DNA from: Candidatus Poribacteria bacterium
GTDB lineage: Bacteria > Poribacteria > WGA-4E > WGA-3G
DNA: 64,000 nucleotides
Assembly (NCBI GenBank): GCA_965205065.1
Contig: CBDBFT010000001.1
Coordinates: 5,681,821-5,745,820, forward strand
Reading direction: 5' to 3'
Position numbers and translations under genes: made by a program. This document shows, one piece after another, positions 11,057 to 45,765 of the stretch. The first letter of the stretch is position 1; the number at the start of each line of letters is the position of its first letter. Below the pieces are notes generated by a model. The model was given only the letters and a program-made list of their open reading frames with translations. It searched no databases and had not been told where the DNA came from.

Positions 11057-11076
11057 CTGATCAAAGTCATATAATA

Positions 11077-12243: not shown

Positions 12244-12308
12244 ATAAGTTTGAATATCAGAAAAGCAATTCGCTTTTATATATTCAATTTGGTGCGGACG
12301 ATACCTCT

Positions 12309-17242: not shown

Positions 17243-17321
17243 ATTCACGCCTCTCGGATACGAAATGGTGTGAGTGAACGCAACCGAAATGATTAATCAA
17301 ACTCACGTTATTGGAGGAACA

Positions 17322-19983: not shown

Positions 19984-21984
19984 TTGAAAATTTTCACACT
20001 TACTGAATTAACGCATATAGTGTTTACGCATATAGTGTTTAGAAGACAGACCTTGAATCTTGCCGTGGTGATAAAACGTATTGTTGTTTTAGGTATGCTT
20101 TTTTACCTGTCACACCAGATCGTATTGGCACAGACTGTTCATATTCCTGACCCAGGTCTTCGCACTGCTCTTGAATTAGCATTGGGTAAACAAGCTGGTG
20201 AAGATATAACTCAGGTAGACATGGCAAGTTTAGAATCGTTGAATGCTTTAGAAAAGGGTATTCACAACATAAGTGGACTTGAGTTTGCTGTCAATTTAAC
20301 AGAGCTGCATCTTGGACGTAATCGGATATTAAATTTGTCTCCGCTTGAAGACTTGAAAAACCTAAGCATACTAGATATCCACCTAAATGGAGAAGTATTA
20401 GTTTTAAATCCGATCAAGAGTTTGATTAACCTGACGCGGTTATCTTTAAGTGAGAACCGGATTACCGACGTGACACCACTCAAAGACTTAACAAATCTAA
20501 AATACCTTGCTCTTGATGAGAACGAGATATCAAATGTATCGCCGTTGAGAAATTTGACAAATCTGACAGAGTTACATCTTAACGACAACAAGAATCTCTC
20601 AGATGTCACACCACTCCAGAATATGCTCAATTTGACATTTCTGGAACTTCATGGAAACATTATATCAGATATTTCCGCGCTCAAGGGGCTTCTGAATCTA
20701 AGAGACCTAAGACTTCAAGAGAACCGAATATCGGATGTTTCCGCACTGGAACATTTGACAAAACTTACATACCTTAATCTTGACGATAATTACAGAATAT
20801 CTGATTTGACACCACTCGAAAGTTTGACAAATTTAAGACACCTTTCTCTTGATGAAAACCAAATAATCAACATATCTCCGCTAAGAAACTTAACAAATCT
20901 GAGATACCTTGCTCTTGATGATAATAGAATATCCGATATATCTCCACTGAAGAAATTGACGAATCTCAGAGAATTAGATCTTAACGACAACAAGAATATC
21001 TCAGATGTCACGCCACTCCAGAATATGGTCAATTTGACATTTCTGGAACTTCATGGTAACAATATATCAGATGTATCTTCTCTCAAAGGTCTTGTGAATT
21101 TAAGGGACTTAAGACTGCAGGAGAACCAAATCTCGAATGTGTTTTCACTTAAAAATATGGTACGTCTATCATACTTAGATATTCACGACAATGCTATATC
21201 GGATATATCTCCACTTAAGAGTCTAACAAATCTGAAATACTTAGATCTTAGGAGCAATAATATATCAGATTATTCCCCGCTTGAGGGTTTATTAGATAAC
21301 CTTGTGGAATATTATACAGAGCATCAATCGAAATCACCTGACGTGAATCGAGATGGAATTGTGGATATTACTGATCTTATTTTAATTGCATCCAACTTCA
21401 CATATCCTGATCTTAACGTGCTTGCAGAATCAAACATCTATCCAGATGTCAACAACGATGGTGTCGTTAATTTGATTGACTTGCTACTTGTTGCAGCGGA
21501 AATGGGTTCTAATGCAGCAGCCCCCGCACTCAGCAAGAATGCCGTTCTGGCATCAAATCTGACATCTGAAAACCTTGTAGAGTGGATTCAATCTGCGAAG
21601 CAACTTGATATTGAAATACCAAATTTACATAAAGGAATTTCTATATTACGACAACTCTTGGCTATCCGAAACAGTGTAGAGACATCGCACATTAAGACAG
21701 CTGTGCTGAGAAACTATCCAAATCCGTTTAACCCTGAGACGTGGATACCGTATCAATTGGCAAAACCAGCAAAAGTCGATATCTCAATTTTTTCTATAGA
21801 CGGTAAACGCATCAGAACCTTGAAATTAGGACATAAACCTGCCGGTAAATACCACGATAAACACCAATCTGCATATTGGGATGGTCGGAATGCGTTTGGC
21901 GAGTCAGTAGCAAGTGGAGTCTATTTCTACACGTTTAATGCTGATGATTTCAGATCGACGGGTAGAATGTTCATCCGCAAGTGA
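19984..21984 (+). CDS. Secreted internalin-type LRR protein 1 with the dockerin-like / linker / CTD cassette
   Basis: Cap motif IPDPGLRTALELALGK. About 15 tandem 22-residue repeats LTNLxxLxLxxNxISDISPL. Then DVNRDGIVDITDL and DVNNDGVVNLIDL, a helical linker, and LRNYPNPFNPETWIPYQL...GVYFYTF...RMFIRK. The true start is more likely the GTG at 20065/20068, which gives VIKRIVVLGMLFYLSHQIVLA/QT. The track start lies in a 15-bp direct repeat. Confidence 0.85.
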   Translation: MKIFTLTELTHIVFTHIVFRRQTLNLAVVIKRIVVLGMLFYLSHQIVLAQTVHIPDPGLRTALELALGKQAGEDITQVDMASLESLNALEKGIHNISGLEFAVNLTELHLGRNRILNLSPLEDLKNLSILDIHLNGEVLVLNPIKSLINLTRLSLSENRITDVTPLKDLTNLKYLALDENEISNVSPLRNLTNLTELHLNDNKNLSDVTPLQNMLNLTFLELHGNIISDISALKGLLNLRDLRLQENRISDVSALEHLTKLTYLNLDDNYRISDLTPLESLTNLRHLSLDENQIINISPLRNLTNLRYLALDDNRISDISPLKKLTNLRELDLNDNKNISDVTPLQNMVNLTFLELHGNNISDVSSLKGLVNLRDLRLQENQISNVFSLKNMVRLSYLDIHDNAISDISPLKSLTNLKYLDLRSNNISDYSPLEGLLDNLVEYYTEHQSKSPDVNRDGIVDITDLILIASNFTYPDLNVLAESNIYPDVNNDGVVNLIDLLLVAAEMGSNAAAPALSKNAVLASNLTSENLVEWIQSAKQLDIEIPNLHKGISILRQLLAIRNSVETSHIKTAVLRNYPNPFNPETWIPYQLAKPAKVDISIFSIDGKRIRTLKLGHKPAGKYHDKHQSAYWDGRNAFGESVASGVYFYTFNADDFRSTGRMFIRK

Positions 21985-22034
21985 ACTTGAATTCTGCTTA
22001 TAGTATTATATAGTATTGAAACTTGTAGGCATCT

Positions 22035-24410
22035 ATGTTAATCAAATATTATGAACACTGTTTCATGGCACTATTCAGGTATATTGGTATACGATTCTCA
22101 AGACAAAAGTTGAGACTTTTTCGTGTTGTCAACCTAATTCTCATAGCATGTCTGCTCTTTTTAGTAATGCATGGGAACACAATTGCAGAATCCGTGCATA
22201 TTCCTGATCCTTACCTCCGTGATGCACTTGAGTTAGCATTAGGCAAAGCTGAGAATGAGGACATTACGCAAGCGGATATGTCAGGTTTACAGGTACTTCA
22301 AGCCAGCAAATGTCGTTTCTTGATGTTATCTGAAGTACAAACGTTTGGTGCTCCTAATCGTTGGGTATGTCAAGATTCTGCTAATTTCCAAACCGGAATT
22401 AATAACTTGACCGGCATTGAGTTTGCTGTTAATTTGAAAGAATTACACCTTGGACGCAACTTTATATCAGACATATCACCGCTCAAAAATTTGACAAAAT
22501 TGGAATACTTAGATTTAGGTCTCAATCGGACTATATCCGATATATCACCGCTCAAAGATTTGATTAACTTAACGCATCTCTCACTTAGATATAATCAGGT
22601 ATCAGATCTATCACCGCTGAAAAATTTGAATAACTTGATAGATCTTGATCTTTTTGAAAATCAAATATCGGATATATCTCCATTAAAACATTTAGCAGAT
22701 AATTTGATGTTTCTTGAGCTCGGCTACAATGACTTAACCACTGATATTTCTTCACTCAGCAACTTAACAAAACTAACATTCCTATCACTTAGATACAATC
22801 AAATATCGGATTTGTCACCCCTAAAAAGATTAACAAACTTAATAGGCTTAGATGTGCAACATAACCAGTTATCGGATTTGGCACCACTAAAAGATTTGCG
22901 TAAACTGCAGCTTCTGGATGTTGACAGTAACCAGATATCAGATGTGACACCACTAAAAAACTTGACAGAACTATTACTGCTTGATATATCTGACAACGAA
23001 ATATCGGATATATCTTCAATTAAAGGTTTGATACATTTGGTATGGCTGGATATTGATGACAACTACTTGCAGGATATAACTGCATTAAAAGATCTAACAG
23101 AGCTAATTGAACTTGATCTTGACGACAATGAGATAGAAGACATTACGCTGCTTGAAAATATGAGATATCTGAATTGGTTGGACCTTGATGACAACCAGAT
23201 ATCTGACGTGTCTCCACTACAAAACTTGACAGAATTGACATATCTTGATTTGGATGGCAATCAAATTTCAGATGTGACCCCTCTACAAAACCTGATAGAA
23301 TTAAAGTTTCTTGATCTGGATAACAATCAGATATTAGATGTGTCACCTCTTCGGAATTTGATCCGCTTGGATGAACTTGATCTTCACAACAACCATATAT
23401 CAGATGTGTCCCCTCTTAATAACTTGGTAAACCTGATAGATCTGGATTTGGACGACAACCAAATTTCTGATATATCAGCACTTTACACATTGACAAAATT
23501 GATGGTGTTAGATTTAAATGGAAATCAGATATCAGATCTATCCCCATTACAAGGATTGACAAATCTGATTGAACTTGATCTTCGCGACAACCATATATCG
23601 AATGTGTTACCCCTCAGAGGATTGATACACTTGTCAGTGTTGGATCTCAGTGAAAACCGGATATCGGTTTTTTATCCCATCCTCGGCATAATAGAGAATT
23701 TAGTTGAATATGATGCCAGTAACCAATCCGTTCCAACCTACAAAACTGAAGATGTAAATCGAGATGGTAGCGTGAATACCACAGACCTCCTATTGATTGC
23801 ATCTTACTTCCATAATTCTGACTTAGAAACTCTGGCAGAGTCTAACATATTTCCAGATGTCAACTACGATGATACTGTTAATCTGATAGACCTATTAATT
23901 GTTGCAGCGGCAATGAGTGTAGATACTGCAGCCCCAGTCCTCAATAAGGATTCAGTTGAAGTATCTGATATTACAGCCAAAGAACTATCACACTGGATTC
24001 GGCGCGCTAAGCAGCTTGATATGGACGATCCACTTATGCACATTCCACATTTACAAAAGGGGATCGCTTTTTTAGAACAACTCTTGGAGGGTCTTTCCAT
24101 AGGAAACGTGCTGCCAAAAGAAACAGCACTGTTGACGAATTACCCGAATCCGTTTAACCCTGAGACATGGATACCGTTTCAACTCTCAGAACCGGCACAG
24201 GCCAGCATCTCAATTCATGCTGTAGATGGGAAACACATCAGGACTTTGAAACTTGGTTACTTACCTATAGGTATATATTACAATAAAGACAGATCAACGT
24301 ATTGGGATGGTAAGAATGAATTCGGTGAATCTGTTTCAAGTGGAGTCTATTTTTATACACTCTCTGCTGGAGAATTCACAGCTACGGGTAGAATGCTCAT
24401 TGTCAAGTAA
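22035..24410 (+). CDS. Secreted internalin-type LRR protein 2 with the same C-terminal cassette
   Basis: 791 aa. Hydrophobic N-terminus. IPDPYLRDALELALGK. A Cys-containing insert (CRFLML...RWVCQ). About 19 LRRs. DVNRDGSVNTTDL and DVNYDDTVNLIDL. LTNYPNPFNPETWIPFQL...GVYFYTL...RMLIVK. Confidence 0.85.
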   Translation: MLIKYYEHCFMALFRYIGIRFSRQKLRLFRVVNLILIACLLFLVMHGNTIAESVHIPDPYLRDALELALGKAENEDITQADMSGLQVLQASKCRFLMLSEVQTFGAPNRWVCQDSANFQTGINNLTGIEFAVNLKELHLGRNFISDISPLKNLTKLEYLDLGLNRTISDISPLKDLINLTHLSLRYNQVSDLSPLKNLNNLIDLDLFENQISDISPLKHLADNLMFLELGYNDLTTDISSLSNLTKLTFLSLRYNQISDLSPLKRLTNLIGLDVQHNQLSDLAPLKDLRKLQLLDVDSNQISDVTPLKNLTELLLLDISDNEISDISSIKGLIHLVWLDIDDNYLQDITALKDLTELIELDLDDNEIEDITLLENMRYLNWLDLDDNQISDVSPLQNLTELTYLDLDGNQISDVTPLQNLIELKFLDLDNNQILDVSPLRNLIRLDELDLHNNHISDVSPLNNLVNLIDLDLDDNQISDISALYTLTKLMVLDLNGNQISDLSPLQGLTNLIELDLRDNHISNVLPLRGLIHLSVLDLSENRISVFYPILGIIENLVEYDASNQSVPTYKTEDVNRDGSVNTTDLLLIASYFHNSDLETLAESNIFPDVNYDDTVNLIDLLIVAAAMSVDTAAPVLNKDSVEVSDITAKELSHWIRRAKQLDMDDPLMHIPHLQKGIAFLEQLLEGLSIGNVLPKETALLTNYPNPFNPETWIPFQLSEPAQASISIHAVDGKHIRTLKLGYLPIGIYYNKDRSTYWDGKNEFGESVSSGVYFYTLSAGEFTATGRMLIVK

Positions 24411-24431
24411 CTATACGAGGAGAATAAGTAT

Positions 24432-26858
24432 TTGAGAAGTTTAACTATTTCAAAATCAGCATATCCACAATCTTCAAGTCAAGATTTTGGGGTAATTCAC
24501 CCTATTTTGCTGATCCTCATTGCGGGTATGTTTTTATGTCTACCACATAAGATGGTATTTGCTCAGACCGTCACAATTCCGGATACTAACCTTCGTGCTG
24601 CACTCGAGTCAGCATTGGGTAAACTCGAAGGTGACGACATTACGAAAGCGGATATGGCAAGTTTACAATCGCTTCAAGCCAGCAGATGTCGCTTTGCAAG
24701 CTTATCAGAGAAAGGATGGCGATCACCTGACCGATGGATATGTCAGTTAACAGAGAATACTATCATATCTGAAATTCAAGATTTATCAGGTCTTGAGTTT
24801 GCTATCAATCTAAGAGAATTGCGACTGGGTCGCAATAAAATATCGGATATTACGCCACTTAAAGGTCTTACAAAACTAACATATCTGGACCTTGGACACA
24901 ACAGATTAATATCGGATGTTTCTCCACTCAAAGATCTAATAAGATTGACACATCTGTACCTCAGGGTAAACCAAATAAGAGATATATCACCATTAAAAAC
25001 ATTAGTAAATTTGGTAGAATTAGACCTTCACGCGAACCAGGTATCAAATATATCCTCACTTCAAGATTTGACGAAGATTGCATACCTGGATATTAGTCTG
25101 AATAGAGTGTCAGATTTGTCTCCACTCAATACCTTAATTGATCTGACTGTTCTTATTCTTCGCGATAACGACATATCAGATGTGTCATCTATCAGAGACC
25201 TGACGAAACTAACGCACCTATATCTTGGTGTTAACCAGATCATCAATATCTCACCACTCAAGGATTTAATAGAGCTAAAAGAATTAGATTTTGAAGAAAA
25301 TTTGTTGTCAGATATATCTGCACTTACCAACTTAACTAAACTGACATGGTTGGACCTTGACACCAACAATATATCAGATGCGTCACCACTCAGAAATTTG
25401 AAAAGACTGGGACTGCTGGATTTATCTGACAACATGGTATCAGACATTTCACCATTAGATGCTATGATAAATCTGGTATACTTAGATATTGACGACAATC
25501 CAATCTCAGATGTGTTTCCGCTTGGAAATCTAACCAATTTGACATATATCGATTTAGACCAAACCACGATATCAGATATATCGCCACTTGCCAACTTAAC
25601 AAAACTGGCATGGTTGGACCTTCAAGGTAACGAAATATCGGATATATCGCCACTCAAAAACTTGACAGAATTAACATATCTTGATATTAATGCAAACAAA
25701 ATAAGTGATGTGTCAGCTCTTCGTAATTTGACTAATCTAACGGAATTAGATCTTGACGAAAACGAGATATTTGATGTCTCACCGCTCGAAAATTTGACAA
25801 ATCTAACGATACTGGATATTCACAATAATAAAATTTCAGATTTGTCCCCACTTAGAAACTTGAGAGGTCTAATTGAATTAGATCTGGATGACAATAATAT
25901 ATCAGATATTTCCTATCTCAAGTATATGAGAAAACTGAAGATACTTGACCTTGATGGCAACAGAATATCGGATATATCGGCATTGCAGAATATGATAAAT
26001 CTAATTGAACTTGATCTTCACGACAACCATATATCAAATGTGTTACCACTCAAAGGATTGATACACTTGTCAATATTGGATCTCAGCGAAAACCGGATTT
26101 CGGATTTCTCACCCATCGCTGGTATAATAGAGAATTTAGTAGAATATGATGCCAGTAACCAAACAGTTTCGGCATATAAACCTGAAGATGTGAACAGAGA
26201 TGGTACTGTAAATATTGCGGATCTGCTTTTAGTTGCTTCTCACTTTATCGATCCTGATTTGGAGTCTCTTGCAGATATGAACATCTATCCGGATGTGAAC
26301 TACGATGAAGTTATTAATTTAATTGATCTGCTTCTTGTTGCAGCAGCGATAGATGCGGTTGCTGGTGCCCCATTACTAAACAAAAATCTAATTGAAGCAT
26401 CTAATCTCACAGTTGAAAACCTTACCCAATGGCTAAATGACGCTAAACAGCTTGAGATGGACGATCCACTTATGCACATTCCACATTTACAAAAGGGGAT
26501 TGCTTTTTTGGAACAACTCTTGGAGAGTCTTTCCAACGGAAACGTGCTGCCAAAAGAAACAGCACTATTGACGAATTACCCGAATCCGTTTAACCCTGAG
26601 ACATGGATCCCTTACCAATTGGCTAAACCCGCAAAGGTTGTCATCTCAATCTATTCTGCAGAAGGTCATCACGTACGGCGTTTGGATTTGGGACACTTAC
26701 CTGCGGGTGTCTATCAGAGCAAATCACGAGCAGCATATTGGGATGGTAAAAATGCGTTCGGTGAGTCTGTCGCAAGTGGGATTTATTTCTATACACTTAC
26801 TACAGATACCAGCACATATAATTTTAGTGCCATTGGGAAAATGTTAATCGTAAAATAG
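24432..26858 (+). CDS. Secreted internalin-type LRR protein 3 with the same C-terminal cassette
   Basis: 808 aa. Signal-like ILLILIAGMFLCLPHKMVFA/QT. IPDTNLRAALESALGK. Cys insert CRFASL...RWICQ. About 19 LRRs. DVNRDGTVNIADL and DVNYDEVINLIDL. LTNYPNPFNPETWIPYQL...GIYFYTL...KMLIVK. Confidence 0.85.
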   Translation: MRSLTISKSAYPQSSSQDFGVIHPILLILIAGMFLCLPHKMVFAQTVTIPDTNLRAALESALGKLEGDDITKADMASLQSLQASRCRFASLSEKGWRSPDRWICQLTENTIISEIQDLSGLEFAINLRELRLGRNKISDITPLKGLTKLTYLDLGHNRLISDVSPLKDLIRLTHLYLRVNQIRDISPLKTLVNLVELDLHANQVSNISSLQDLTKIAYLDISLNRVSDLSPLNTLIDLTVLILRDNDISDVSSIRDLTKLTHLYLGVNQIINISPLKDLIELKELDFEENLLSDISALTNLTKLTWLDLDTNNISDASPLRNLKRLGLLDLSDNMVSDISPLDAMINLVYLDIDDNPISDVFPLGNLTNLTYIDLDQTTISDISPLANLTKLAWLDLQGNEISDISPLKNLTELTYLDINANKISDVSALRNLTNLTELDLDENEIFDVSPLENLTNLTILDIHNNKISDLSPLRNLRGLIELDLDDNNISDISYLKYMRKLKILDLDGNRISDISALQNMINLIELDLHDNHISNVLPLKGLIHLSILDLSENRISDFSPIAGIIENLVEYDASNQTVSAYKPEDVNRDGTVNIADLLLVASHFIDPDLESLADMNIYPDVNYDEVINLIDLLLVAAAIDAVAGAPLLNKNLIEASNLTVENLTQWLNDAKQLEMDDPLMHIPHLQKGIAFLEQLLESLSNGNVLPKETALLTNYPNPFNPETWIPYQLAKPAKVVISIYSAEGHHVRRLDLGHLPAGVYQSKSRAAYWDGKNAFGESVASGIYFYTLTTDTSTYNFSAIGKMLIVK

Positions 26859-26892
26859 AGTTAAGTCACACACGGATAGATTAGGAGGAAAA

Positions 26893-29553: not shown

Positions 29554-29561
29554 GTGTTTTA

Positions 29562-30557: not shown

Positions 30558-30967
30558 AAACTGTTTTAGTTACGGGATGTTTCGACCTATTTCACTACGG
30601 ACATCTCAAATTTTTGGAAGCATCTGCCGCTTGTGGAGATTATCTTATCGTCGGTGTTGCTGAGGATGATACGGTACGTCGCGTCAAAGGGGAAAATAGA
30701 CCTATCTATCCACTTGAACATCGGATGGCACTTATAGATGCATGTAGACATGTAGATAAAGTTGAGGTATTCTCTTTAGAGTCTCAGCTGGATTTAGTTG
30801 CTCAAGTATCGCCGGATGTATGTGTCGAAGGTGCTGACGGTAACGCGAGGCTCAGAGAGATTCTTGAAGAGTTAGGTGTTAATACCCCAGTTCAGACAGT
30901 ATATACGGATTATATCCATACGACTGATATTGTCAGAAAGATCCTCAATGTATCATCAGGGACTTGA
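30554..30967 (+). CDS. Cytidylyltransferase-like nucleotidyltransferase (TagD / RfaE domain II type)
   Basis: 137 aa. VLVTGCFDLFHYGHLKFL carries the HxGH signature. 4-nt overlap with the upstream kinase. Confidence 0.8.
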   Translation: MKTVLVTGCFDLFHYGHLKFLEASAACGDYLIVGVAEDDTVRRVKGENRPIYPLEHRMALIDACRHVDKVEVFSLESQLDLVAQVSPDVCVEGADGNARLREILEELGVNTPVQTVYTDYIHTTDIVRKILNVSSGT

Positions 30968-30979
30968 GAATACCAGAAT

Positions 30980-32347: not shown

Positions 32348-32376
32348 TATGGTAATACGGGACAAAGGTGCTATAA

Positions 32377-33354: not shown

Positions 33355-33363
33355 GTTTTACGC

Positions 33364-34260: not shown

Positions 34261-34269
34261 TAGTTTAGT

Positions 34270-35619: not shown

Positions 35620-35629
35620 GTTTACCCTT

Positions 35630-37240: not shown

Positions 37241-38262
37241 TACTGGATAAAATGCTGTTTGTAGTTGGTAATAGCCGTAGTGGTACAACAATGATGGGAC
37301 GGATATTAGGTAATCACGATGATGTATTTACATTTGGAGAACTGCATTTTTTCGGGCAGTTATGGTCGCCAGCATCTTCAACCGAGTTAGATATATCAGA
37401 AGCGACAGAATTGGCTGCAAAACTATTCTGCATACAACGTGAAGGTTATCGCATGCATGGAGGACATCAGCGATTTCTTGAAGAGGCGGGTCCATTCTGT
37501 GAAAGTATTACAGGTTATCCGATTTCTCCAGTGGTTCTGTTTTCTGAGTTCTTACGTTTTGAGGCATCACGGAACGGGAATTCAATACCTTGCGACCAAA
37601 CCCCGCGCAATGTATTCTATATGGATGAGATACTCAAGTCCTATCCTCAGGTGAAGATAATAAATATGATTCGTGACCCGCGTGATGTGCTATTGTCAAA
37701 AAAACGGAAATGGAAACGCCGTTTTCTTGGCGGAACAAACTTACCTTTAAAGGAGAGTTTTCGAGATTGGTTGAACTACCATCCGATTACAATTAGTAGA
37801 ATTTGGCAGACTGCAGTTTCCGCCGCTGATAAGTTCTCGGAGCATGACAATGTCATATCAATCTATTTTGAAAAACTCCTTGCTGCTCCTGAAGACACAG
37901 TTTCCCAAATCTGTGATTTTGTAGGTATTGATTACTGTCAATCCTTACTCAAAGTGCCTCAAGTAGGGTCTTCTGTAAACGCAGATGCACCTGATAACCT
38001 CGGCATAAACCCCAATCGTGCGGGAAACTGGCATGATAAGAATAGGAATGAAGGTAAACTCAATTCATCCGAACTCTATATCAGTCAAAAAGTAAACGGT
38101 TCATTAATGAGAAAACACAACTATGAGCTGGTAAGGATTCAACCGAGTATTTTCTATCTTCTCTTGAATATAGTTTCATTTCCACTAAAATCAATAGGTG
38201 CTTTTCTTTTTAACCTCAACCGTATCAAAAACATCCGTGAAACATTAAAAAGACGTTTATGA
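37237..38262 (+). CDS. Sulfotransferase 3 (Sulfotransfer_3-like) with hydrophobic C-terminal tail
   Basis: FVVGNSRSGTTMMGRILGNH and MIRDPRDVLLS. The C-terminus SIFYLLLNIVSFPLKSIGAFLF is hydrophobic. 4-nt overlap with the GH gene. Confidence 0.8.
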   Translation: MILDKMLFVVGNSRSGTTMMGRILGNHDDVFTFGELHFFGQLWSPASSTELDISEATELAAKLFCIQREGYRMHGGHQRFLEEAGPFCESITGYPISPVVLFSEFLRFEASRNGNSIPCDQTPRNVFYMDEILKSYPQVKIINMIRDPRDVLLSKKRKWKRRFLGGTNLPLKESFRDWLNYHPITISRIWQTAVSAADKFSEHDNVISIYFEKLLAAPEDTVSQICDFVGIDYCQSLLKVPQVGSSVNADAPDNLGINPNRAGNWHDKNRNEGKLNSSELYISQKVNGSLMRKHNYELVRIQPSIFYLLLNIVSFPLKSIGAFLFNLNRIKNIRETLKRRL

Positions 38263-38325
38263 TAATTCAACTTATAATTTTGACACATTCTCATACCATT
38301 TCTTAAATCAAAATGCCTCTTTACT

Positions 38326-38350
38326 GTAGCACATTCTGTTAGATTGTGCC
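38326..38350. repeat. GTAGCACA-family hairpin, canonical copy
   Basis: gtagcacattctgttagattgtgcc sits in the only sizeable gap (38263..38437) of the polysaccharide gene array. Confidence 0.85.
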
Positions 38351-38437
38351 GTTCTCCGCTTCATTTCTAAACAGTCGGTAATGAGAGAAAAATTAATTGA
38401 AATGGTATCACATGTAATACAGGCTCACATATAAGAC

Positions 38438-39439
38438 ATGATTGCGCAGCTAAATAAAGAATACATCAGAACACGGCCAAAGAAAGTTATTCCTCGTTTG
38501 ATGAGTTACTTCCTCTTTGAAGGACGTCCTGCAACGACAAAAGGACGTTGGATAAATCCGCTTGTTCTTTCTTTCTTGAGAAGGATCGCAACCAGTAAAC
38601 GAAAATTTAGACCCGTAAAAAAGCCTATTTTTATCATAGGAACAGGTCGTAGTGGGACAACAGTTCTTGGCACGGTTCTTTCAATGCATCGGGATGTCGG
38701 TTATCTAAATGAACCGAAGGCACTGTGGCATATAATTCATCCAAGAGAGGACATCATCGGCAGTTATAGTGATATTGAAGGTGTTTATAGATTGTCTTCA
38801 AAAGACGTTACAGACGAAATGTGCCAAAGCGCGAAACAACTCTTTGGTGCTTATTTGTCTACCACACGCGCACATAGGATCGTTGACAAATATCCTGAGT
38901 TGATATTTAGAGTCGGTTTTGTGCAAACACTGTTTCCTGATGCAAAGTTCATTTTCCTCATTCGAAATGGATGGGATACGTGTCAATCCATAGCTGCATG
39001 GTCCAAACGACTCGGGATCCAATTGAAAGGTGAAACGCATGATTGGTGGGGTGTAGATAACCGTAAATGGAGATTATTAGTAGAACAGTTGGTCGCCACA
39101 GACGATGATTTGAAAGAGATAATTACAGAAAAAAGAGATTTTGACCGGCACTTGGACAGAGCTGCAGTTGAATGGGTGGTAACAATGCATGAAGGTCTAC
39201 GGTTATTAGATATAACTTCAGATTGTATATATCCAGTGAGGTTTGAGGAGCTGACATCAAAACCTGATGAAGTCCTTCCACCTATATGTGATTTTTGTGA
39301 TCTGCAACTTGATAGGACTTTTCTGGATTATGCACAACAAACGTTACACACTGTTCCACCCAGAGACCAATTCGATGTACATCATAAGATTGCACCATTT
39401 TTTAATGACACGATGGCAAGATTAGGATATAATAGTTAG
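38438..39439 (+). CDS. Sulfotransferase 4 (Sulfotransfer_3-like)
   Basis: IFIIGTGRSGTTVLGTVLSMH and FLIRNGWDTCQS. Confidence 0.75.
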   Translation: MIAQLNKEYIRTRPKKVIPRLMSYFLFEGRPATTKGRWINPLVLSFLRRIATSKRKFRPVKKPIFIIGTGRSGTTVLGTVLSMHRDVGYLNEPKALWHIIHPREDIIGSYSDIEGVYRLSSKDVTDEMCQSAKQLFGAYLSTTRAHRIVDKYPELIFRVGFVQTLFPDAKFIFLIRNGWDTCQSIAAWSKRLGIQLKGETHDWWGVDNRKWRLLVEQLVATDDDLKEIITEKRDFDRHLDRAAVEWVVTMHEGLRLLDITSDCIYPVRFEELTSKPDEVLPPICDFCDLQLDRTFLDYAQQTLHTVPPRDQFDVHHKIAPFFNDTMARLGYNS

Positions 39440-39499
39440 GTAGTCTTCTCAATTTAGGTTTCCGAATAGACATCCAGAATAAAAAAGGACCGTATCAGC

Positions 39500-41653
39500 A
39501 TGAAGCAACCCCCCAACATGACAAATTTAAAACTAACTTCTAAAGCACGTTCTTTTACGCGAAGAGAGTTTTTATCTACAAGTTTGAAAGCAGGTACTGC
39601 AGCCTTTACGACAAGTCTTATCCCCTCTCTAAACGCTACATCTAACACACCCTATAATGTCCTATTTATTATGATCGACGATCTCCGTCCAATGTTAGGT
39701 TGTTATGGACACTCAGAGATGCATACACCAAATATTGACAGGTTAGCAGCAAGGGGGACAGTATTTAATAGAGCTTACTGCAATTTTCCATTATGCAATC
39801 CATCACGTGCTTCACTGCTGACCGGGTTACGTCCCGATACAACAGCGATTAAAGATAATTCATCAAGTAGCACAGAGACTCTACCGGGTGTCACAATTCC
39901 GCAACATTTTAAAGAAAACGGATATTATACACATTCTATCGGTAAAATTGCCCACGGATGGTATGCTTGGACTGATAAAGTTTCCTGGAGTAAGAGAATC
40001 TGGAAATTACCGTATGAGGATCACGATTATTGGGCAAGACCTTCACAATGGAAGATACTTGATGTAGCGGATGATGAGCTTAGAGATGGGCAAGCGGCTC
40101 GGGAGGCGGTAAAAGAGTTATCTGTTTTAAAGGACAGACCTTTTTTCCTCGGGGTCGGATTTGATAGACCGCATGTGCCTTTTAGGGCACCTCGCAAGTA
40201 TTATGATCTTTATTCAAGAAATGATTTTTCTTTACCGAAGACGAATACACTACCAAAAAATGCCCCCCTTTACGCGATTGAGGCGGATCCTACAAAGTTA
40301 GAAGACAATGTGGTATTGGAATACATACATGCTTATGCAGCATGTACAAGTTATGTTGATGCACAGATAGGATTAATACTTGATCAACTTGAAAAGTTAG
40401 AACTTAATAACAAAACAGTAATCGTTCTGATGGGAGATCACGGATTTCACCTCGGTGAACATTCTAAGTGGCAAAAAGGAACACTGTTTGAGATCGGGTT
40501 ACTTACACCCCTGATTGTCAGTATGCCAGAGCAGACAAATATCGGAAGAACAACAGATGCTTTGGTTGAACTCGTTGATGTTTTTCCTACATTATGTGAT
40601 GCTTGCGACCTCTCTATCCCCGAAGAACTTGAAGGTTTCAGTATGCTGCCTTTAATAGAAGAACCTGAACAACAGTGGAAATCAGCAGCATTTAGTCAAG
40701 TTAGACGAAGACCCGGACAAGTCTGGTATAGAAGACAAACACTATCAGATATGGCAGGTGTTGAACTAACAAACGAAGATACTGTGGATGGATATTCGCT
40801 GCGTTCGGATCGCTACAGATATAGCGAATGGGGGGCATATAACAAAAATGGCGAGAAATTTGCTGACCTGGTAACTGAGCTTTATGATTATCAGAATGAT
40901 CCTCATGAAACCGTTAATGTTGCGAATCTACCAGAAAATGCAAAACTGGTATCTCAATTGAGCAAACAGTTACAATTGGGTTGGCAAGCTACATCAACTG
41001 AATTAGAACAGAGACTCCCATTAACCAAAAACAGACTACCTTGGGATATTGACGAGAACGGAATTGTTGATATTGAAGATCTTCTGTTAGTCTCAAACAG
41101 TTTTGGATCAAAGACAATTGACAACCCTAAAGTTGATGTTAATAAAGATGGCAACGTAGATATTATAGATCTGCTAATCGTTGCTGCACATTTAGGTGAA
41201 TCTTCAAATACAGGGTCTCCAAGGTCTATCTCCATTACAGATCAGCACTTAGACCGAGTTCAACAATGGGTCGACGAAGCACGTAAAATCAAGGAAACTT
41301 CTCCAATTTATCGCAAAGGCATAAAGAATTTAGAGATGTTTATAGATTCTTATGTTCCAAAATTAACCAAGCTTTTACCCAATTTTCCAAATCCGTTTAA
41401 TCCTGAAACTTGGATACCGTATGACTTAGGGGAAGGTGCTGATGTCAATATCTACATCCACAACTTGAAAGGTGAGTTAATTCGACATCTTAGCGTGGGG
41501 TTTCAGAGTCCTGGAAAATATAGATCGCGTTCACGTGCAGCCTATTGGGATGGACGCAATTCGTATGGTGAAGAGGTTTCCAGTGGAGTCTATTTTTATT
41601 CTTTTGACACTGGACAGAATATATTAACCCGTAAAATGGTCATTACAAAATAG
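39500..41653 (+). CDS. Tat-signal iduronate-2-sulfatase-like sulfatase 1 with the dockerin-like / linker / CTD cassette
   Basis: Tat motif SFTRREFLSTSLKAGTAAF. YNVLFIMIDDLRPMLGCYGHSEMHTPNIDRLA...CNPSRASLLTGLRPDTT is closely similar by eye to human IDS, including the Cys-type FGly motif CxPSR. GDHGFHLGEH. DIDENGIVDIEDL and DVNKDGNVDIIDL. LLPNFPNPFNPETWIPYDL...GVYFYSF...KMVITK. Confidence 0.9.
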   Translation: MKQPPNMTNLKLTSKARSFTRREFLSTSLKAGTAAFTTSLIPSLNATSNTPYNVLFIMIDDLRPMLGCYGHSEMHTPNIDRLAARGTVFNRAYCNFPLCNPSRASLLTGLRPDTTAIKDNSSSSTETLPGVTIPQHFKENGYYTHSIGKIAHGWYAWTDKVSWSKRIWKLPYEDHDYWARPSQWKILDVADDELRDGQAAREAVKELSVLKDRPFFLGVGFDRPHVPFRAPRKYYDLYSRNDFSLPKTNTLPKNAPLYAIEADPTKLEDNVVLEYIHAYAACTSYVDAQIGLILDQLEKLELNNKTVIVLMGDHGFHLGEHSKWQKGTLFEIGLLTPLIVSMPEQTNIGRTTDALVELVDVFPTLCDACDLSIPEELEGFSMLPLIEEPEQQWKSAAFSQVRRRPGQVWYRRQTLSDMAGVELTNEDTVDGYSLRSDRYRYSEWGAYNKNGEKFADLVTELYDYQNDPHETVNVANLPENAKLVSQLSKQLQLGWQATSTELEQRLPLTKNRLPWDIDENGIVDIEDLLLVSNSFGSKTIDNPKVDVNKDGNVDIIDLLIVAAHLGESSNTGSPRSISITDQHLDRVQQWVDEARKIKETSPIYRKGIKNLEMFIDSYVPKLTKLLPNFPNPFNPETWIPYDLGEGADVNIYIHNLKGELIRHLSVGFQSPGKYRSRSRAAYWDGRNSYGEEVSSGVYFYSFDTGQNILTRKMVITK

Positions 41654-41664
41654 AAAGGTGTCAG

Positions 41665-43725
41665 ATGGTAGATACTAAGCTTCACGGTGTGTTCTCCAAC
41701 ACATTTAGCCGTCGTGAATTCATTTCAAAAAGTTTGAAAACAGGTGCAGCAGCAGCAGCAGCATTCACTACAAGTCTTCTTCCCGCCTTAAACGTTTCGT
41801 CAAGTACACCATACAATGTACTGTTTTTTATGGTAGATGACTTACGACCTCTATTAGGTTGTTATGGACACGCGGAAATGCATACCCCCAATATTGATAG
41901 TATAGCTGAAAGAGGAACGGTTTTTAACAGTGCCTATTGTCAATTTCCGCTTTGTAGTCCTTCGCGAACGACGGTCATGACAGGACTAAGACCTGATTCA
42001 ACGCGTATATCTGAGAATAGAACTTTTTTTCGTGAAACTGTCCCGGATGTCGTTACGCTCCCTCAACATTTTAAAGATAGCGGTTATCATACACAATCCA
42101 TCGGAAAAGTTGCTCATATTCCTAAATTCCAAGATGATATGTATTCATGGAGCGTCCCATCATGGAGACCCTTATGGCCTCGATTTGATGAAACAACACT
42201 ATCATGGGAGGCTTTTGATGTTGAGGATGATGCGTTTAGAGATGGTAAAACAGCAATACGTGCTGTTCAAGTGTTGGATCAGATTAAGAACGATCAGTTC
42301 TTTTTGACGGTTGGATTTTACAAACCGCATCTCCCTTTACGAGCACCAAGAAAGTATTACGATTTATATGAAAACACATCCATTAACATTCCATTTACAT
42401 CAGGAGAAACTCCTATTGATATTAACCCGCCAGTATGGAATGAGGTGCGACCTTATGCGGATATATCATCCAAGCGGGAACCGATACCCTATAGCAAGAT
42501 GCTTGAACTGATTCGGGCTTATGCTGCTACAATAAGTTATGTGGACGCGCAAATAGGTCTTATCTTGAACAAACTTGATGTACTTGGACTGAAAGATAAC
42601 ACGATTATAGTCTTCTGTGGTGATCATGGCTATAATCTCGGAGAGCATGAGAACTGGGGGAAAAACATCGTCTATGAAGCAACACTACATTCACCTTTGA
42701 TTGTAAGTATTCCTGGACAGCTGGAGGTTGGCAAAAACACAGATGCACTGGTAGAACTTGTTGATGTATTTCCAACTTTATGTGATGCATGTCAAATTCC
42801 GATTCTACCTGAATTGGAGGGACTGAGCATGATGCCAGTTATAGACGACCCCGAAATCCCATGGAAAACTGCAGCTTTTAGTCAACGAAAGAACAAACGG
42901 ACAATCCGAACCGACGAATTCAGATACATTGAAGAAGGAAGGTATAAAGAACTTTACGACTATAGAACTGACCCGTATTCTGAAGTAAACGTGGTGGATG
43001 ATCCTGCGTATGTTGAACAGGTTGAACTGCTCAGTGAAAGACTACGAGCGGGTTGGCAAGAAGCATTACCTGAGAATATACCCCCACGCGTTGTGCCCCC
43101 TAACACATTACCTTGGGATATAAACAGTGATGGTATTGTTGATATTGAAGACCTTTTGCTCATATCTAACAGTTTCGGAATAGAGTCCCCTGACAACCCT
43201 AAAATTGATGTTAATGAAGATGGTAAAGTAAATATTATAGATCTGCTAATCGTTGCCGCGCATTTAGGGGAATCTTCTCAGACAGGTGCTCCAAGGACTA
43301 TTTCCATAGCAGATCAACACATAGACCGTGTTGAAGAATGGATTCATGATGCCCGTAAAATCAAGGATGCTTCTCCTATTTATCACAAAGGCATTAAAAA
43401 CTTAGAGATGTTGATCAATTCAGTTGTTCCAAATGAAACCAGACTCCTGCCCAATTTTCCGAATCCTTTTAACCCTGAGACGTGGATACCTTACGAGTTA
43501 GCAGAAAATGCAGATGTCAGAATAAACATCTATAATATAAGAGGTGAATCTATTAGAAAACTTGAAATCGGTTTTCAATCTGCTGGGACATATCGGACAC
43601 AGGTGAGTGCAGCACATTGGGATGGGCGAAACTCTGCAGGTGAACCTGTCTCCAGTGGTGTCTATTTCTATACACTTATTGCGGGAGATTTCACCACTAC
43701 CCGAAAAATGTTGATACGGAAATAG
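41665..43725 (+). CDS. Tat-signal iduronate-2-sulfatase-like sulfatase 2 with the same cassette
   Basis: TFSRREFISKSLKTGAAAAAAF. CSPSRTTVMTGLRPD. GDHGYNLGEH. DINSDGIVDIEDL and DVNEDGKVNIIDL. LLPNFPNPFNPETWIPYEL...GVYFYTL...KMLIRK. Confidence 0.9.
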   Translation: MVDTKLHGVFSNTFSRREFISKSLKTGAAAAAAFTTSLLPALNVSSSTPYNVLFFMVDDLRPLLGCYGHAEMHTPNIDSIAERGTVFNSAYCQFPLCSPSRTTVMTGLRPDSTRISENRTFFRETVPDVVTLPQHFKDSGYHTQSIGKVAHIPKFQDDMYSWSVPSWRPLWPRFDETTLSWEAFDVEDDAFRDGKTAIRAVQVLDQIKNDQFFLTVGFYKPHLPLRAPRKYYDLYENTSINIPFTSGETPIDINPPVWNEVRPYADISSKREPIPYSKMLELIRAYAATISYVDAQIGLILNKLDVLGLKDNTIIVFCGDHGYNLGEHENWGKNIVYEATLHSPLIVSIPGQLEVGKNTDALVELVDVFPTLCDACQIPILPELEGLSMMPVIDDPEIPWKTAAFSQRKNKRTIRTDEFRYIEEGRYKELYDYRTDPYSEVNVVDDPAYVEQVELLSERLRAGWQEALPENIPPRVVPPNTLPWDINSDGIVDIEDLLLISNSFGIESPDNPKIDVNEDGKVNIIDLLIVAAHLGESSQTGAPRTISIADQHIDRVEEWIHDARKIKDASPIYHKGIKNLEMLINSVVPNETRLLPNFPNPFNPETWIPYELAENADVRINIYNIRGESIRKLEIGFQSAGTYRTQVSAAHWDGRNSAGEPVSSGVYFYTLIAGDFTTTRKMLIRK

Positions 43726-43737
43726 GAGAGACAACAG

Positions 43738-45765
43738 ATGCAAGAAGATTCACAGCGGAAGGCAAGTTCTGGTTTCATGACCCGTCGTAGTTTCCTAAAT
43801 ACTGGTTTGAAAATTGGTGCTGCCACATTTACAACCGGTCTGTTACCACGTCTAAATGCACATAGTGAGAACAGATACAATGTTCTGTTCATGATTGTAG
43901 ATGATTTGCGTCCAATGCTTGGTTGCTACGGTATTGATGAAATGCACACCCCAAATATTGATAGGTTAGCAGAACGGGGAACGCTTTTCAATCGTGCTTA
44001 TTGTCAATATCCACTATGTAACCCGTCCCGTGCATCTATACTAACGGGATTACGTCCTGAGACGACGAAGGTGCACACCAATTCCGCTGACTATGAGCAT
44101 ACTGTTCCTGATGCTGTGGACATACCGCAGTACTTTATGGAACAAGGTTATAATACATATTCAATAGGTAAAATCAAGCACTATCCTGCCACCACCTCTT
44201 ATGCTGGAAAACCTTCATGGATAGCACTTGATGTGTCTGACGATGAACTGAATGATGGGATAACTGCAAAAAAATCTGAGGATCTCCTTGCTGAGATAAA
44301 GGATGAACTGTTCTTTTTAGCTGTCGGATTTGACAAACCGCATTTACCGCTTTACGCGCCGCGAAAGTACTTTGATTTATATGATGAAGATACTTTCAAT
44401 TTACCCATTACATCTACCTTTCCTCAGCATGCACCAGCTTATGCAGAAAACAGTATTGAATGGTTTAGAATATATCGGGACATACCATCTGGCGACGCGC
44501 CTATTTCTGATCAGAAGACCTTAGAACTCATTCGAGCTTACGCTGCTTCAACGAGTTACATGGATGCACAAGTTGGTCGAGTCCTAATGCAGTTAGATAA
44601 TCTGGAATTAACTGAAAAGACAGTTATTGTATTTTGTGGGGACCACGGTTTTCATCTTGGAGAACACGGAACTTGGCGGAAAAATACACTTTTCGAAATT
44701 GCTACGCGTTCGCCATTGATTATCAGTGTTCCGGGTCAGCAACCCTCACGAACTGATGCCTTAACAGAGCTTGTAGATATTTATCCTACTTTATGTGATG
44801 CATGTGACTTACCGATATCCAATCAGTTAGAAGGTTTGAGTCTCCTCCCTGTAATAGAAGAACCTAATAGGTCCTGGAAAACCGGGGCAATTAGTTTTCT
44901 GAGCCGTGGGGGTTCCAAATCCTATTCTCTTCGTACCGACAGGTACCGCTACACTGAATGGGGCCCGCGAGGGAAGTTTGGTAATGAACTATACGACTAT
45001 AACGTTGACCCGAACGAAACTATAAATGTTGCAGATTTTCCTGAATATTCAGAGCTTGTTGAACATCTAAAACAACGACTTCGTTCAGGTTGGAAAAACG
45101 AAATGCCGAATGGCGATAAAAATCCACCGATACCCAGGAGTATAATACCTTGGGATGTAAACAGTGATGGGATTGTTGATATACAAGACCTTATCCTCAC
45201 ATCAAATAGTTTTGGGATAGTGACTCCTGACAATGAGAGAGTAGATGTGAATAAAGATGGAAAAGTTAATATCATCGATTTATTAATTATAGCGGCGCAT
45301 TTAGGTAAATCTACCATCACCTCAGCACCACAAGTATCTTTATCCGTTTTACCCGAGCATGTTGACACTATTTCAGAATGGCTTATTGAGGCACGGAAAA
45401 TAGATGACGGTTCAGAAGTTTTTCGTAATGGGATAGCTAAGCTGGAAGCACTTTTTGATACTATAAATCCAGCAAAAACAGTACTTTTACAAAATTATCC
45501 CAATCCATTCAATCCAGAGACGTGGATACCTTACGATTTAGCGCAAGATGCAAAGGTGAACATTAAAATCTATAATCTGAAAGGTGAAACTATCAGAGAA
45601 CTTAATATAGGTTTTCAAAACGCAGGCAGCTACAGGAGCAAAGAATTGGCGGCATATTGGGATGGACGTAATTCTGCTGGTGAACTTGTCGCAAGCGGGG
45701 TCTATTTTTATAGTCTCAATACAGGTAGAGCAAGAGCAATCCGACAAATGACAGTTGTGAAATAA
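43738..45765 (+). CDS. Tat-signal iduronate-2-sulfatase-like sulfatase 3 with the same cassette
   Basis: FMTRRSFLNTGLKIGAATF. CNPSRASILTGLRPE. GDHGFHLGEH. DVNSDGIVDIQDL and DVNKDGKVNIIDL. LLQNYPNPFNPETWIPYDL...GVYFYSL...QMTVVK. Confidence 0.9.
   Translation: MQEDSQRKASSGFMTRRSFLNTGLKIGAATFTTGLLPRLNAHSENRYNVLFMIVDDLRPMLGCYGIDEMHTPNIDRLAERGTLFNRAYCQYPLCNPSRASILTGLRPETTKVHTNSADYEHTVPDAVDIPQYFMEQGYNTYSIGKIKHYPATTSYAGKPSWIALDVSDDELNDGITAKKSEDLLAEIKDELFFLAVGFDKPHLPLYAPRKYFDLYDEDTFNLPITSTFPQHAPAYAENSIEWFRIYRDIPSGDAPISDQKTLELIRAYAASTSYMDAQVGRVLMQLDNLELTEKTVIVFCGDHGFHLGEHGTWRKNTLFEIATRSPLIISVPGQQPSRTDALTELVDIYPTLCDACDLPISNQLEGLSLLPVIEEPNRSWKTGAISFLSRGGSKSYSLRTDRYRYTEWGPRGKFGNELYDYNVDPNETINVADFPEYSELVEHLKQRLRSGWKNEMPNGDKNPPIPRSIIPWDVNSDGIVDIQDLILTSNSFGIVTPDNERVDVNKDGKVNIIDLLIIAAHLGKSTITSAPQVSLSVLPEHVDTISEWLIEARKIDDGSEVFRNGIAKLEALFDTINPAKTVLLQNYPNPFNPETWIPYDLAQDAKVNIKIYNLKGETIRELNIGFQNAGSYRSKELAAYWDGRNSAGELVASGVYFYSLNTGRARAIRQMTVVK

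Follow-up and report, generated by a model that had tools for sequence, protein, structure and literature searches.

Seven exported proteins encoded in a 64 kb stretch of a Candidatus Poribacteria genome (contig CBDBFT010000001.1, positions 5,681,821 to 5,745,820; hereafter the window) share a C-terminal tail of 205–226 amino acids (aa), in which a dockerin and a two-helix hairpin are followed by a β-sandwich resembling the type A C-terminal sorting domain (CTD) of type IX secretion systems (T9SS). This tail is an ordinary and extremely abundant building block of poribacterial proteins, and in its full-length form it is a hallmark of this sponge-associated phylum, with few occurrences elsewhere. 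With moderate confidence, we take its bearers to be surface proteins that are sorted by their CTDs and whose dockerin–hairpin units would plug into cohesins on sibling proteins, yielding multi-protein surface complexes.

Seven tail-bearing proteins with three kinds of head

Exactly seven genes of the window, all on the + strand (19984–29553 and 39500–45765), encode the tail. Three specify leucine-rich repeat (LRR) proteins, one an FG-GAP/ASPIC (VCBS-type) protein and three sulfatases, the head families being assigned by Pfam as LRR_4/LRR_8, FG-GAP_3 with UnbV_ASPIC, and Sulfatase with SGSH_C, respectively. The exported proteins LRR1 (19984–21984, 666 aa), LRR2 (22035–24410, 791 aa) and LRR3 (24432–26858, 808 aa) match LRR_4 with 192, 231 and 254 bits, and the FG-GAP/ASPIC protein (26893–29553, 886 aa) matches FG-GAP_3 with 121 bits and UnbV_ASPIC with 54 bits. 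Sulfatase 1 (39500–41653, 717 aa), sulfatase 2 (41665–43725, 686 aa) and sulfatase 3 (43738–45765, 675 aa) score 164, 147 and 144 bits against the Sulfatase model, the first also reaching 66 bits with SGSH_C; they carry the CxPxR active-site motif, which is of the Cys type in sulfatase 1. When the translations were read by eye, the N-termini of the four non-enzymes resembled Sec signal peptides, while those of the three sulfatases were twin-arginine-like (TRREFL, SRREFI and TRRSFL).

A six-frame scan of the 64 kb returned exactly 7 matches to PNPFNPETWIP[YF], each at the C-terminus of a tail-bearing open reading frame (ORF), and exactly 14 matches to the dockerin loop motif, confined to the C-termini of the same seven ORFs. 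A first-pass annotation of this DNA had described seven secreted proteins of three head classes ending in one C-terminal cassette, and the ORFs, the motif scan and the profiles bear this out.

The dockerin and its helical hairpin

Pfam Dockerin_1 (PF00404; threshold 22.9 bits) was above threshold in all seven proteins, with scores of 30.2 (LRR1), 35.0 (LRR2), 34.3 (LRR3), 31.5 (FG-GAP/ASPIC protein), 33.2, 36.5 and 35.9 bits (sulfatases 1–3). In LRR1 the two Ca-loop repeats were placed at 21334–21516 by our own hidden Markov model (HMM), the Pfam match covering residues 453–505; in the other proteins Pfam and our HMM together delimit the dockerin at 23745–23927 (LRR2), 26181–26360 (LRR3), 28903–29070 (FG-GAP/ASPIC protein), 41036–41206 (sulfatase 1), 43108–43278 (sulfatase 2, also modelled with AlphaFold2, AF2) and 45148–45315 (sulfatase 3), always on the + strand. 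The 14 loops start 30–35 aa apart within each pair. In both repeats a helix comes after an EF-hand-like Ca loop, D-x-[ND]-x-D-G-x-[VI]-x-x-x-D, and in 56 sequences the Ca-ligand positions of the two loops show conservation of 90% or more. In a profile search of PDB sequences the best matches were dockerins that had been crystallised with cohesins, namely 2y3n_B (6e-10), 4fl4_A and 2b59_B. At the level of fold, where the E-values were weak, the dockerin matched 6kg9 (probability 0.90) and 2ozn_B (rmsd 1.2 Å over 48 columns); its AF2 helices occupy residues 13–20 and 43–50 of the sulfatase 2 tail. Judged by score, repeat structure and Ca ligands, this part of the tail is a type I dockerin, an assignment already made in the first-pass annotation and now upheld by Pfam in 7/7 proteins, by the PDB sequence matches and by the predicted fold.

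Between the dockerin and the CTD lies a two-helix hairpin of about 50 aa. Our HMM locates it at 21523–21666 in LRR1 (52 bits), 23934–24122 in LRR2 and 26370–26558 in LRR3 (these two having a 5-residue insertion in common), 29110–29262 in the FG-GAP/ASPIC protein (the most divergent copy, only 20 bits), and 41219–41362 and 45328–45477 in sulfatases 1 and 3; in sulfatase 2 (43294–43437) the AF2 helices span tail residues 69–83 and 90–104. Taken alone, the hairpin had no significant match in Pfam or among PDB sequences, and when the dockerin–hairpin model was compared with PDB folds by Foldseek, solved counterparts were found for the dockerin half only. AlphaFold predicts that the two, modelled without the rest of the protein, form one compact four-helix unit (pTM 0.83), and a hairpin without a dockerin was seen in only 3 of more than 290 sampled ORFs. 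Since it is nearly always paired with the dockerin and is predicted to fold with it, the hairpin should not be regarded as a linker, which is what the first-pass annotation had called it.

The C-terminal sorting domain

The sorting domain, about 95 aa long, ends at the stop codon in all seven proteins. It extends over 21697–21981 in LRR1 (157 bits with our HMM; TIGR04183 at residues 578–662), 24123–24407 in LRR2, 26559–26855 in LRR3, 29266–29550 in the FG-GAP/ASPIC protein, and 41366–41650 and 45478–45762 in sulfatases 1 and 3, in each case by TIGR04183 and our HMM; in sulfatase 2 (43438–43722) it was modelled as an eight-strand β-sandwich. NCBIfam TIGR04183 exceeded its cutoff of 23 bits in 7/7 proteins (LRR1–3, 25.6, 24.5 and 23.7; FG-GAP/ASPIC protein, 34.1; sulfatases 1–3, 24.2, 30.9 and 24.2), and FlgD_ig (PF13860) its threshold of 27 in 5/7, the scores being 25.5 in LRR1, 33.0 in LRR3, 33.3 in the FG-GAP/ASPIC protein, and 31.9 and 29.7 in sulfatases 2 and 3. 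All the classical type A motifs are present: an N-terminal NYPNPF, a central GVYFY and a basic C-terminal K-x-x-I-x-K.

The AF2 model of the whole tail (sulfatase 2, 56-sequence alignment) has a pLDDT of 88.4 and comprises two short dockerin helices, the two-helix hairpin and the sandwich. In fold searches the sandwich superposed on the CTDs of PorU and PorZ, and matched substrate CTDs bound in the SprA–PorV translocon (8gl6_D, TM 0.64; 8glk_D, TM 0.71) as well as the immunoglobulin (Ig) domains of FlgD (7eha, 7bhq and 3osv). By score, position and fold, the last part of the tail is a TIGR04183-type domain, as had been proposed from the sequence together with a FlgD-Ig-like fold; functional membership of a T9SS cannot be claimed from this. 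The relationship to the FlgD hook-cap protein is one of fold only: the tail proteins lack the N-terminal region of FlgD, and scans of the window revealed no flagellar gene.

Conservation of the tail

The alignment of the seven tails has 49 invariant columns, and identity is 59–70% inside a head class and 38–48% across classes. Inside each head class, the genes probably arose by local tandem duplication. At the DNA level the tail paralogues are about 50–80% identical, and the synonymous codons used for the invariant NYPNPFNPETWIPY peptide differ among the seven genes, so that the likeness of the tails is kept by selection on the protein; neither an assembly artefact nor recent copying accounts for it. 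On the same two grounds we reject recent gene conversion as the source of the overall similarity. An exception is a patch of 93% nucleotide identity between LRR2 (~23970–24150) and LRR3 (~26400–26590), which spans the hairpin and the start of the CTD and compares with 55–75% identity elsewhere; this patch suggests local gene conversion between tandem paralogues.

Among 145 representative tails, at most 50% identical overall, the CTD hardly varies from end to end, the second dockerin repeat is better conserved than the first, and the hairpin retains a core of the form W...A / GI..LE.LL; purifying selection on the tail is thus strong. The distance from motif to stop codon is fixed at 88 residues in 133 of 145 poribacterial ORFs.

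Spread and modularity across Poribacteria

A profile built from the seven tails matched at least 7,971 proteins in a 90%-clustered database and, in a 50%-clustered library, 291,437, 120,777 and 5,764 representatives at E ≤ 1e-3, 1e-10 and 1e-30, respectively. Among the best 150 matches, nearly all are proteins of 200–2,300 aa whose extreme C-terminus is formed by the full tail, and the named relatives are all Candidatus Poribacteria. In species-representative genomes the full-length tail occurs only in Poribacteria, in a few metagenome-assembled genomes (MAGs) labelled 'uncultured bacterium' and, weakly, in Gemmatimonadota and GN15 MAGs. With the last 100 residues alone, matches were obtained in Bacteroidota, Ignavibacteria, Cloacimonadota, Zixibacteria, Calditrichia, Latescibacterota and Marinimicrobia. 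As a DNA pattern, the extended motif PNPFNPETWIP is characteristic of Poribacteria. A housekeeping protein of the window found its best match on a poribacterial chromosome at only 55% identity, which indicates that the lineage of the window is divergent from the species representatives. In 1.33 Mb of poribacterial DNA, some 64 further CTD genes per Mb adjoin those that had been targeted. Database annotation already labels some tail proteins 'dockerin type I domain-containing' or 'T9SS type A sorting domain-containing'.

When poribacterial loci were scanned with our own HMMs for each part of the tail, the first sample of 144 proteins contained 72 with dockerin, hairpin and CTD, 62 with the CTD only and 10 with dockerin and CTD. 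The tail is thus composed of two modules, a universal CTD tag that can stand alone and an optional dockerin–hairpin unit, and is not the single tripartite unit that had been supposed. The idea of a portable cassette for surface display or assembly holds in so far as the tail is carried by unrelated heads; the surface role is an inference. Heads found across the phylum include WD40 (on 23 of 53 representatives), internalin-like LRR, sulfatase, M36 and serine peptidases, intimin-like, TolB-like, EF-hand, FGE-type and cohesin domains, although this Pfam repertoire is partial because redundant WD40 families dominate the summary.

Two observations bear on the limits of the family. In a Gemmatimonadota MAG (CP070758.1, locus L040), two adjacent ORFs of about 1000 aa end in a dockerin-like pair that contains Cys, followed by some 50 residues of helical sequence and by a CTD beginning with NYPNPFNPETTIQF or NYPNPFNPETEITY; this arrangement is a more distant version of the poribacterial layout. 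Moreover, many 'tail-only' matches of 200–400 aa are frameshift fragments from low-coverage long-read assemblies rather than genuine stand-alone tails, as exemplified by a contig of ENA ERZ26693581 (L199, a 3x long-read assembly), in which sulfatase genes are split into 4–6 pieces.

Cohesins on sibling proteins

In many poribacterial proteins the tail is directly preceded by one to four cohesins. In the 1.33 Mb around genes resembling P0038, a cohesin-tail protein, 69 ORFs have the order cohesin–dockerin–hairpin–CTD, 46 have dockerin–hairpin–CTD and 17 the CTD only; two cohesins precede the tail in 15 ORFs, three in 5 and four in 1. Pfam confirmed the cohesins of P0038 (42 bits) and P0089 (39 bits), and recognised four cohesin stretches totalling 150 bits in L235:4155-6653 and three cohesins each in L254:6196-8259 and L243:4713-6764. 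These last proteins have a scaffoldin-like layout, also seen in L238, L246 and L253, in which a signal region is followed by three or four tandem cohesins and then by dockerin, hairpin and CTD. In six MAGs the scaffoldin-like gene lies about 4 kb upstream of a single-cohesin tail protein of the P0038 type. Full-length cohesin-tail proteins occur in more than 50 poribacterial MAG species; no carbohydrate-binding module (CBM) family was detected on the three scaffoldin-like proteins scanned. In one protein, P0350, a cohesin is found together with an FGE-sulfatase domain, a hint that domains of the sulfatase-maturing type belong to the cohesin–dockerin set as well.

Cohesins and the tail thus occur together on the same proteins, from which we infer that the dockerins bind them. 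The first-pass annotation had noted that the window holds no cohesin-bearing scaffold, and Pfam and our own HMMs agree; it had therefore left the docking partner open, whereas candidate partners are in fact abundant on siblings with the same tail in other poribacterial genomes. It had also reasoned that a standard T9SS together with a cohesin scaffoldin would make the architecture an ordinary one. Of these two, scaffoldin-like proteins do exist in the phylum.

An alternative is that the dockerin–hairpin unit serves as a Ca2+-stabilised spacer, or as a carbohydrate- or host-binding element, without any cohesin partner, and that the sibling cohesins have other functions. Dockerins without partners are widespread, the window has no cohesin, the dockerin profile also matches calmodulin-type EF-hands among PDB sequences, albeit weakly, and a hairpin packed on the dockerin could cover its cohesin-binding face. 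Against this, cohesins stand immediately upstream of the same dockerin in 69+15+5+1 of the approximately 160 sampled tails, and they are spread over more than 50 MAG species. Furthermore, whatever the head class, no part of the dockerin is better conserved than the helix of repeat 2, which is the classical cohesin-contact helix, as would fit a single shared partner type. We therefore consider a dockerin without cohesin partner to be distinctly unlikely.

Export route

For the three twin-arginine sulfatases, the expected inner-membrane export route is TatC, encoded on the - strand at 51751–52566 (Pfam TatC, 197 bits), 6 kb downstream of the sulfatase genes. The pairing of a Tat signal with a T9SS-type CTD on one protein is unusual, and a twin-arginine motif was found in only 1 of 147 representative tail proteins.

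As to the outer membrane, Pfam and profile scans detected no T9SS gene in the window, in keeping with the first-pass annotation. Sov, GldK, GldM, PorP and PorQ seeds from the supplement of PMC7323717 were compared by phmmer with six-frame ORFs of poribacterial loci. The only match of the PorQ seed was a true PorV/PorQ family protein beside a CTD gene in a Cloacimonadota locus, which indicates that the seeds can cross phyla. GldK-like matches were rejected as PorK candidates, being generic FGE/EgtB-type domains well below the NCBIfam GldK cutoff. A 928-aa protein with three FGE/EgtB-type domains and a dockerin match (L133:4844-7627) exceeds that cutoff (411 vs 350 bits) only by summing its three repeats, a score that could mislead automated T9SS calls. 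No full-length PorU or PorZ head was found among 43 long poribacterial CTD proteins, the matches being at the level of the CTD only. Clustering of the genes neighbouring CTD genes revealed no conserved machinery gene, the recurrent neighbours being limited to spurious antisense ORFs, WD40 proteins and oxidoreductases.

The question of the export route, raised in the first-pass annotation, had been posed before: Kamke et al. 2014 (PMC3909097) found that eukaryote-like proteins of Poribacteria bear TIGR04183 domains and described the secretion route of these proteins as "to be revealed". Robbins et al. 2021 found secretion systems to be encoded by few sponge-symbiont lineages.

One way to account for these results is that the poribacterial system is an ordinary T9SS that has been overlooked. 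The seven proteins would then be routine cargo, their CTDs would be cut by a PorU-like sortase, the dockerin–cohesin layer would be a decoration, and the architecture would be the same as that proposed for Cloacimonadota. The canonical sequence and fold of the CTD would be explained directly, as would the dockerin–helical–CTD proteins of the Gemmatimonadota MAG and the comparable set of dockerin enzymes with a CTD-bearing cohesin scaffoldin proposed for Ca. Stygibacter (PMC8542988). The negative result of our sampling carries no weight here, the single-copy controls having been missed too. This explanation is harder to reconcile with the lack of Por structural genes in six single-cell genomes (Kamke et al. 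2014, PMC3909097), with the scarcity of secretion systems noted by Robbins et al. 2021, with the missing PorU and PorZ heads among the long CTD proteins, and with the generic FGE-type nature of the GldK-like matches, all below cutoff except the one with three summed repeats. On balance, an overlooked T9SS seems unlikely to us.

Alternatively, the sandwich may not be an export signal at all, being instead a permanent Ig-like anchor or self-association domain that binds the sulfated capsule or another envelope polymer, or polymerises with other copies. The proteins would then cross the outer membrane by another route, such as the type II secretion system, or would be periplasmic. No T9SS gene was found in the window or the sample, and none by Kamke et al. 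2014 (PMC3909097). The near-invariance of the CTD over its whole length in thousands of proteins would suit an attached contact domain better than a cleaved signal, FlgD_ig scores equal or exceed those of the T9SS models, FlgD is among the best fold matches, and the surrounding polysaccharide locus includes Wzi, of a capsule-anchoring lectin family. Yet all three type A motifs, the extreme C-terminal site and the 88-residue spacing in 133/145 ORFs form the signature of a terminal sorting signal; TIGR04183 is above cutoff in every one of the seven proteins; and the model superposes on CTDs caught in the SprA–PorV translocon. CTD-only relatives are likewise spread across the Fibrobacteres–Chlorobi–Bacteroidetes phyla, which include the Bacteroidota, where the T9SS is present, and the one PorV/PorQ-family gene that we recovered stands beside a Cloacimonadota CTD protein. 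A permanent anchor is therefore rather unlikely in our judgement. The alternatives overlap with parts of the reading that we prefer.

Proposed mechanism

According to the preferred reading, that of CTD-sorted proteins joined through dockerins and cohesins, the seven proteins would be cell-envelope or surface proteins built on the standard poribacterial plan. They would cross the inner membrane by means of their N-terminal signals, Sec-type in the LRR and FG-GAP proteins and twin-arginine in the sulfatases. By analogy with T9SS cargo, the C-terminal β-sandwich of about 95 aa would then act as a sorting or anchoring tag for the outer membrane or cell surface. Finally, the dockerin with its packed hairpin is predicted to serve as a Ca2+-dependent plug for cohesins on siblings with the same tail. 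Sulfatases, LRR, WD40 and FG-GAP proteins and peptidases might in this way be joined in a cellulosome-like surface coat. Given the position of the seven genes inside a Wzx/Wzy-type sulfated-polysaccharide locus, the complex probably works in or on the capsule or matrix.

Several points weigh against this scheme. Pfam Por_Secre_tail (PF18962) remains below its threshold in 7/7 proteins (19–24 vs 27), and the fold of the CTD is a generic Ig-like sandwich that is also found in FlgD and in streptococcal C5a peptidase. The 64 kb window has no cohesin gene, the known cohesins coming from other poribacterial genomes, of which the nearest species representative is the one whose housekeeping protein is only 55% identical. 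Putative cargoes and scaffolds alike each carry a dockerin and a CTD, a situation unlike that of any characterised cellulosome to our knowledge, and which leaves the stoichiometry of the complex unclear. Many non-cellulosomal dockerins, moreover, are said by Peer et al. 2009 to lack a known cohesin partner. Nor was any T9SS component found that could carry out the export step driven by the CTD: the Sov, GldM, PorP and PorQ seeds had no match in 2.48 Mb of poribacterial loci, a negative of little power, since the single-copy controls TatC, Tmk, YfiH and CT398 were likewise not recovered and the sample is evidently too thin, and Kamke et al. 2014 (PMC3909097) reported no Por structural genes in six single-cell genomes.

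A more speculative possibility is that the near-invariant CTD of the PNPFNPETWIPY type belongs to an outer-membrane export and anchoring pathway other than the canonical T9SS, and that dockerin–hairpin units and sibling cohesins self-assemble into a surface lattice within the sulfated capsule. Such a lattice would display eukaryote-like repeat proteins, peptidases and sulfatases through a dockerin class that has no solved counterpart. We regard this more far-reaching combination as rather improbable; were it true, it would constitute a physical interface between symbiont and sponge matrix and give eukaryote-like proteins their long-sought route to the host.

Comparison with known systems

Type A cargo of the Bacteroidota T9SS includes the gingipains, RemA and NucA. 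The poribacterial domain resembles the CTDs of such proteins in being a β-sandwich of about 70–100 aa at the extreme C-terminus of signal-peptide-bearing proteins with diverse heads, in its NYPNPF, GVYFY and basic C-terminal motifs, in its TIGR04183 score, and in sharing the fold of PorU, PorZ and translocon-bound CTDs. It differs in that its host lies outside the Bacteroidota and has yielded no T9SS machinery (window, 2.48 Mb sample, PMC3909097), in being far more uniform, with the phylum-specific extension PNPFNPETWIPY, and in that three cargoes of the window have twin-arginine instead of Sec signals.

The proteins of Kamke et al. 2014 (PMC3909097) agree with ours in phylum, in the CTD, in their WD40, LRR, VCBS/FG-GAP and ASPIC heads and in the question of secretion that they raise; unlike here, dockerin and cohesin are not mentioned there. 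The CTD on poribacterial repeat proteins and the apparent lack of a T9SS have accordingly been known since 2014. In the literature searched, no paper links Poribacteria with dockerins, cohesins or cellulosome-like assemblies, and the poribacterial dockerin–hairpin add-on, the sulfatase cargo and the cohesin siblings are not described; cohesin and dockerin occur 0 times in Robbins et al. 2021. What is new is the coupling of hairpin and dockerin, the universal CTD as opposed to the optional dockerin unit, and the abundance of cohesin siblings, scaffoldin-like proteins included.

As in clostridial cellulosomes, duplicated 22-residue Ca-binding dockerin segments are found, enzymes bear a C-terminal dockerin, Poribacteria have proteins with 3–4 tandem cohesins, and the best PDB matches are cellulosomal dockerins. 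Unlike in those systems, however, the organism is of the Gram-negative type and anchoring would be by the CTD, not by S-layer homology (SLH) domains or sortase; scaffold- and cargo-like proteins both have dockerin and CTD; the dockerin has a hairpin fused to it; the three scaffoldin-like proteins that were scanned showed no CBM; and the cargo consists of sulfatases, repeat proteins and peptidases in place of plant-cell-wall glycoside hydrolases.

The closest described system is that of Ca. Stygibacter (Cloacimonadota), for which Williams et al. 2021 (PMC8542988) proposed a cellulosome-like complex of dockerin enzymes and a CTD-bearing cohesin scaffoldin. Both cases combine cohesin–dockerin pairs with a T9SS-type CTD for attachment to the own surface of an uncultured Gram-negative lineage. 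In Ca. Stygibacter, however, the CTD was described on the scaffoldin only and the enzymes end in the dockerin (PMC8542988), whereas the poribacterial dockerins are followed by the hairpin and by a CTD of their own. Scaffold- and cargo-like proteins share the tail in Poribacteria, the cargo consists of sulfatases and repeat proteins, and the family has thousands of members.

How sponge symbionts display eukaryote-like repeat proteins and matrix-degrading enzymes to their host is a standing question. The CTD appears as the universal tag of a very large poribacterial exoproteome, about half of which adds the dockerin–hairpin unit, and the PNPFNPETWIPY sequence offers a handle for cataloguing the surface proteome of this uncultured phylum. 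Cohesins and dockerin–hairpin units provide concrete, testable binding pairs, and sulfatases would be brought into a cellulosome-like assembly. If a complete poribacterial genome proved to be truly without T9SS genes, the CTD would point to an undescribed export route.

Genomic context of the seven genes

The seven genes lie inside one + strand cluster (14921–49397) that resembles, by Pfam, a Wzx/Wzy-type sulfated-polysaccharide locus. It encodes a beta-helix protein, two GT4 glycosyltransferases, a Bac_transf initiating transferase, a cytidylyltransferase, Wzi, a MurJ/Wzx-type flippase, a Wzy_C-like protein, a glycoside hydrolase (GH)-like protein and four sulfotransferases. The polysaccharide-synthesis genes that separate the FG-GAP/ASPIC gene from the sulfatases (29562–39439, +), which are outside the tail family, comprise an FGGY-like gene and those for the cytidylyltransferase, the flippase, the four sulfotransferases and the Wzy_C-like and GH-like proteins. 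Sulfotransferases beside secreted sulfatases suggest both synthesis and editing of a sulfated capsule or matrix. On a metagenome contig from a related strain (88% aa identity; the 3x assembly L199), gene order is the same as in the window, the succession sulfotransferase–sulfatase–Wzi–glycosyltransferase being kept.

Three transposase-type genes are present, at 5983–6931, 9359–10207 and 17274–18422, all on the + strand. They include an insertion sequence with HTH_Tnp_4 and DDE_Tnp_4 over two overlapping ORFs (likely a frameshift), a DDE_3 transposase, and a YhgA-like (Transposase_31) gene inserted into the polysaccharide locus, where it separates a GT4 gene from the LRR genes. A Pnkp-type RNA repair gene with kinase, phosphatase and ligase domains occupies 12309–14873. 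In the 2.1 kb directly upstream of it (10208–12308) ORFs do not exceed 94 aa, and neither Pfam nor Rfam nor a tRNA search gave a match; this region could be a decayed gene, at a site where a Hen1 partner might be expected. The ORFs at 3799–5568 (-, 589 aa), 54741–55448 (+, 235 aa) and 18503–19114 (+, 203 aa) had no Pfam match; as a neighbour they have the gene for a DUF6785/DUF6784 membrane protein (55641–57614).

Directly upstream of LRR1 lies the gene for a small Lamin Tail Domain (LTD) protein (19337–19897, +), which does not carry the tail. A fourth sulfatase (57616–59019, -; 467 aa, Sulfatase and SGSH_C) is likewise free of dockerin, hairpin and CTD, and its domain starts at residue 11 with no obvious signal peptide, unlike that of its three exported paralogues.

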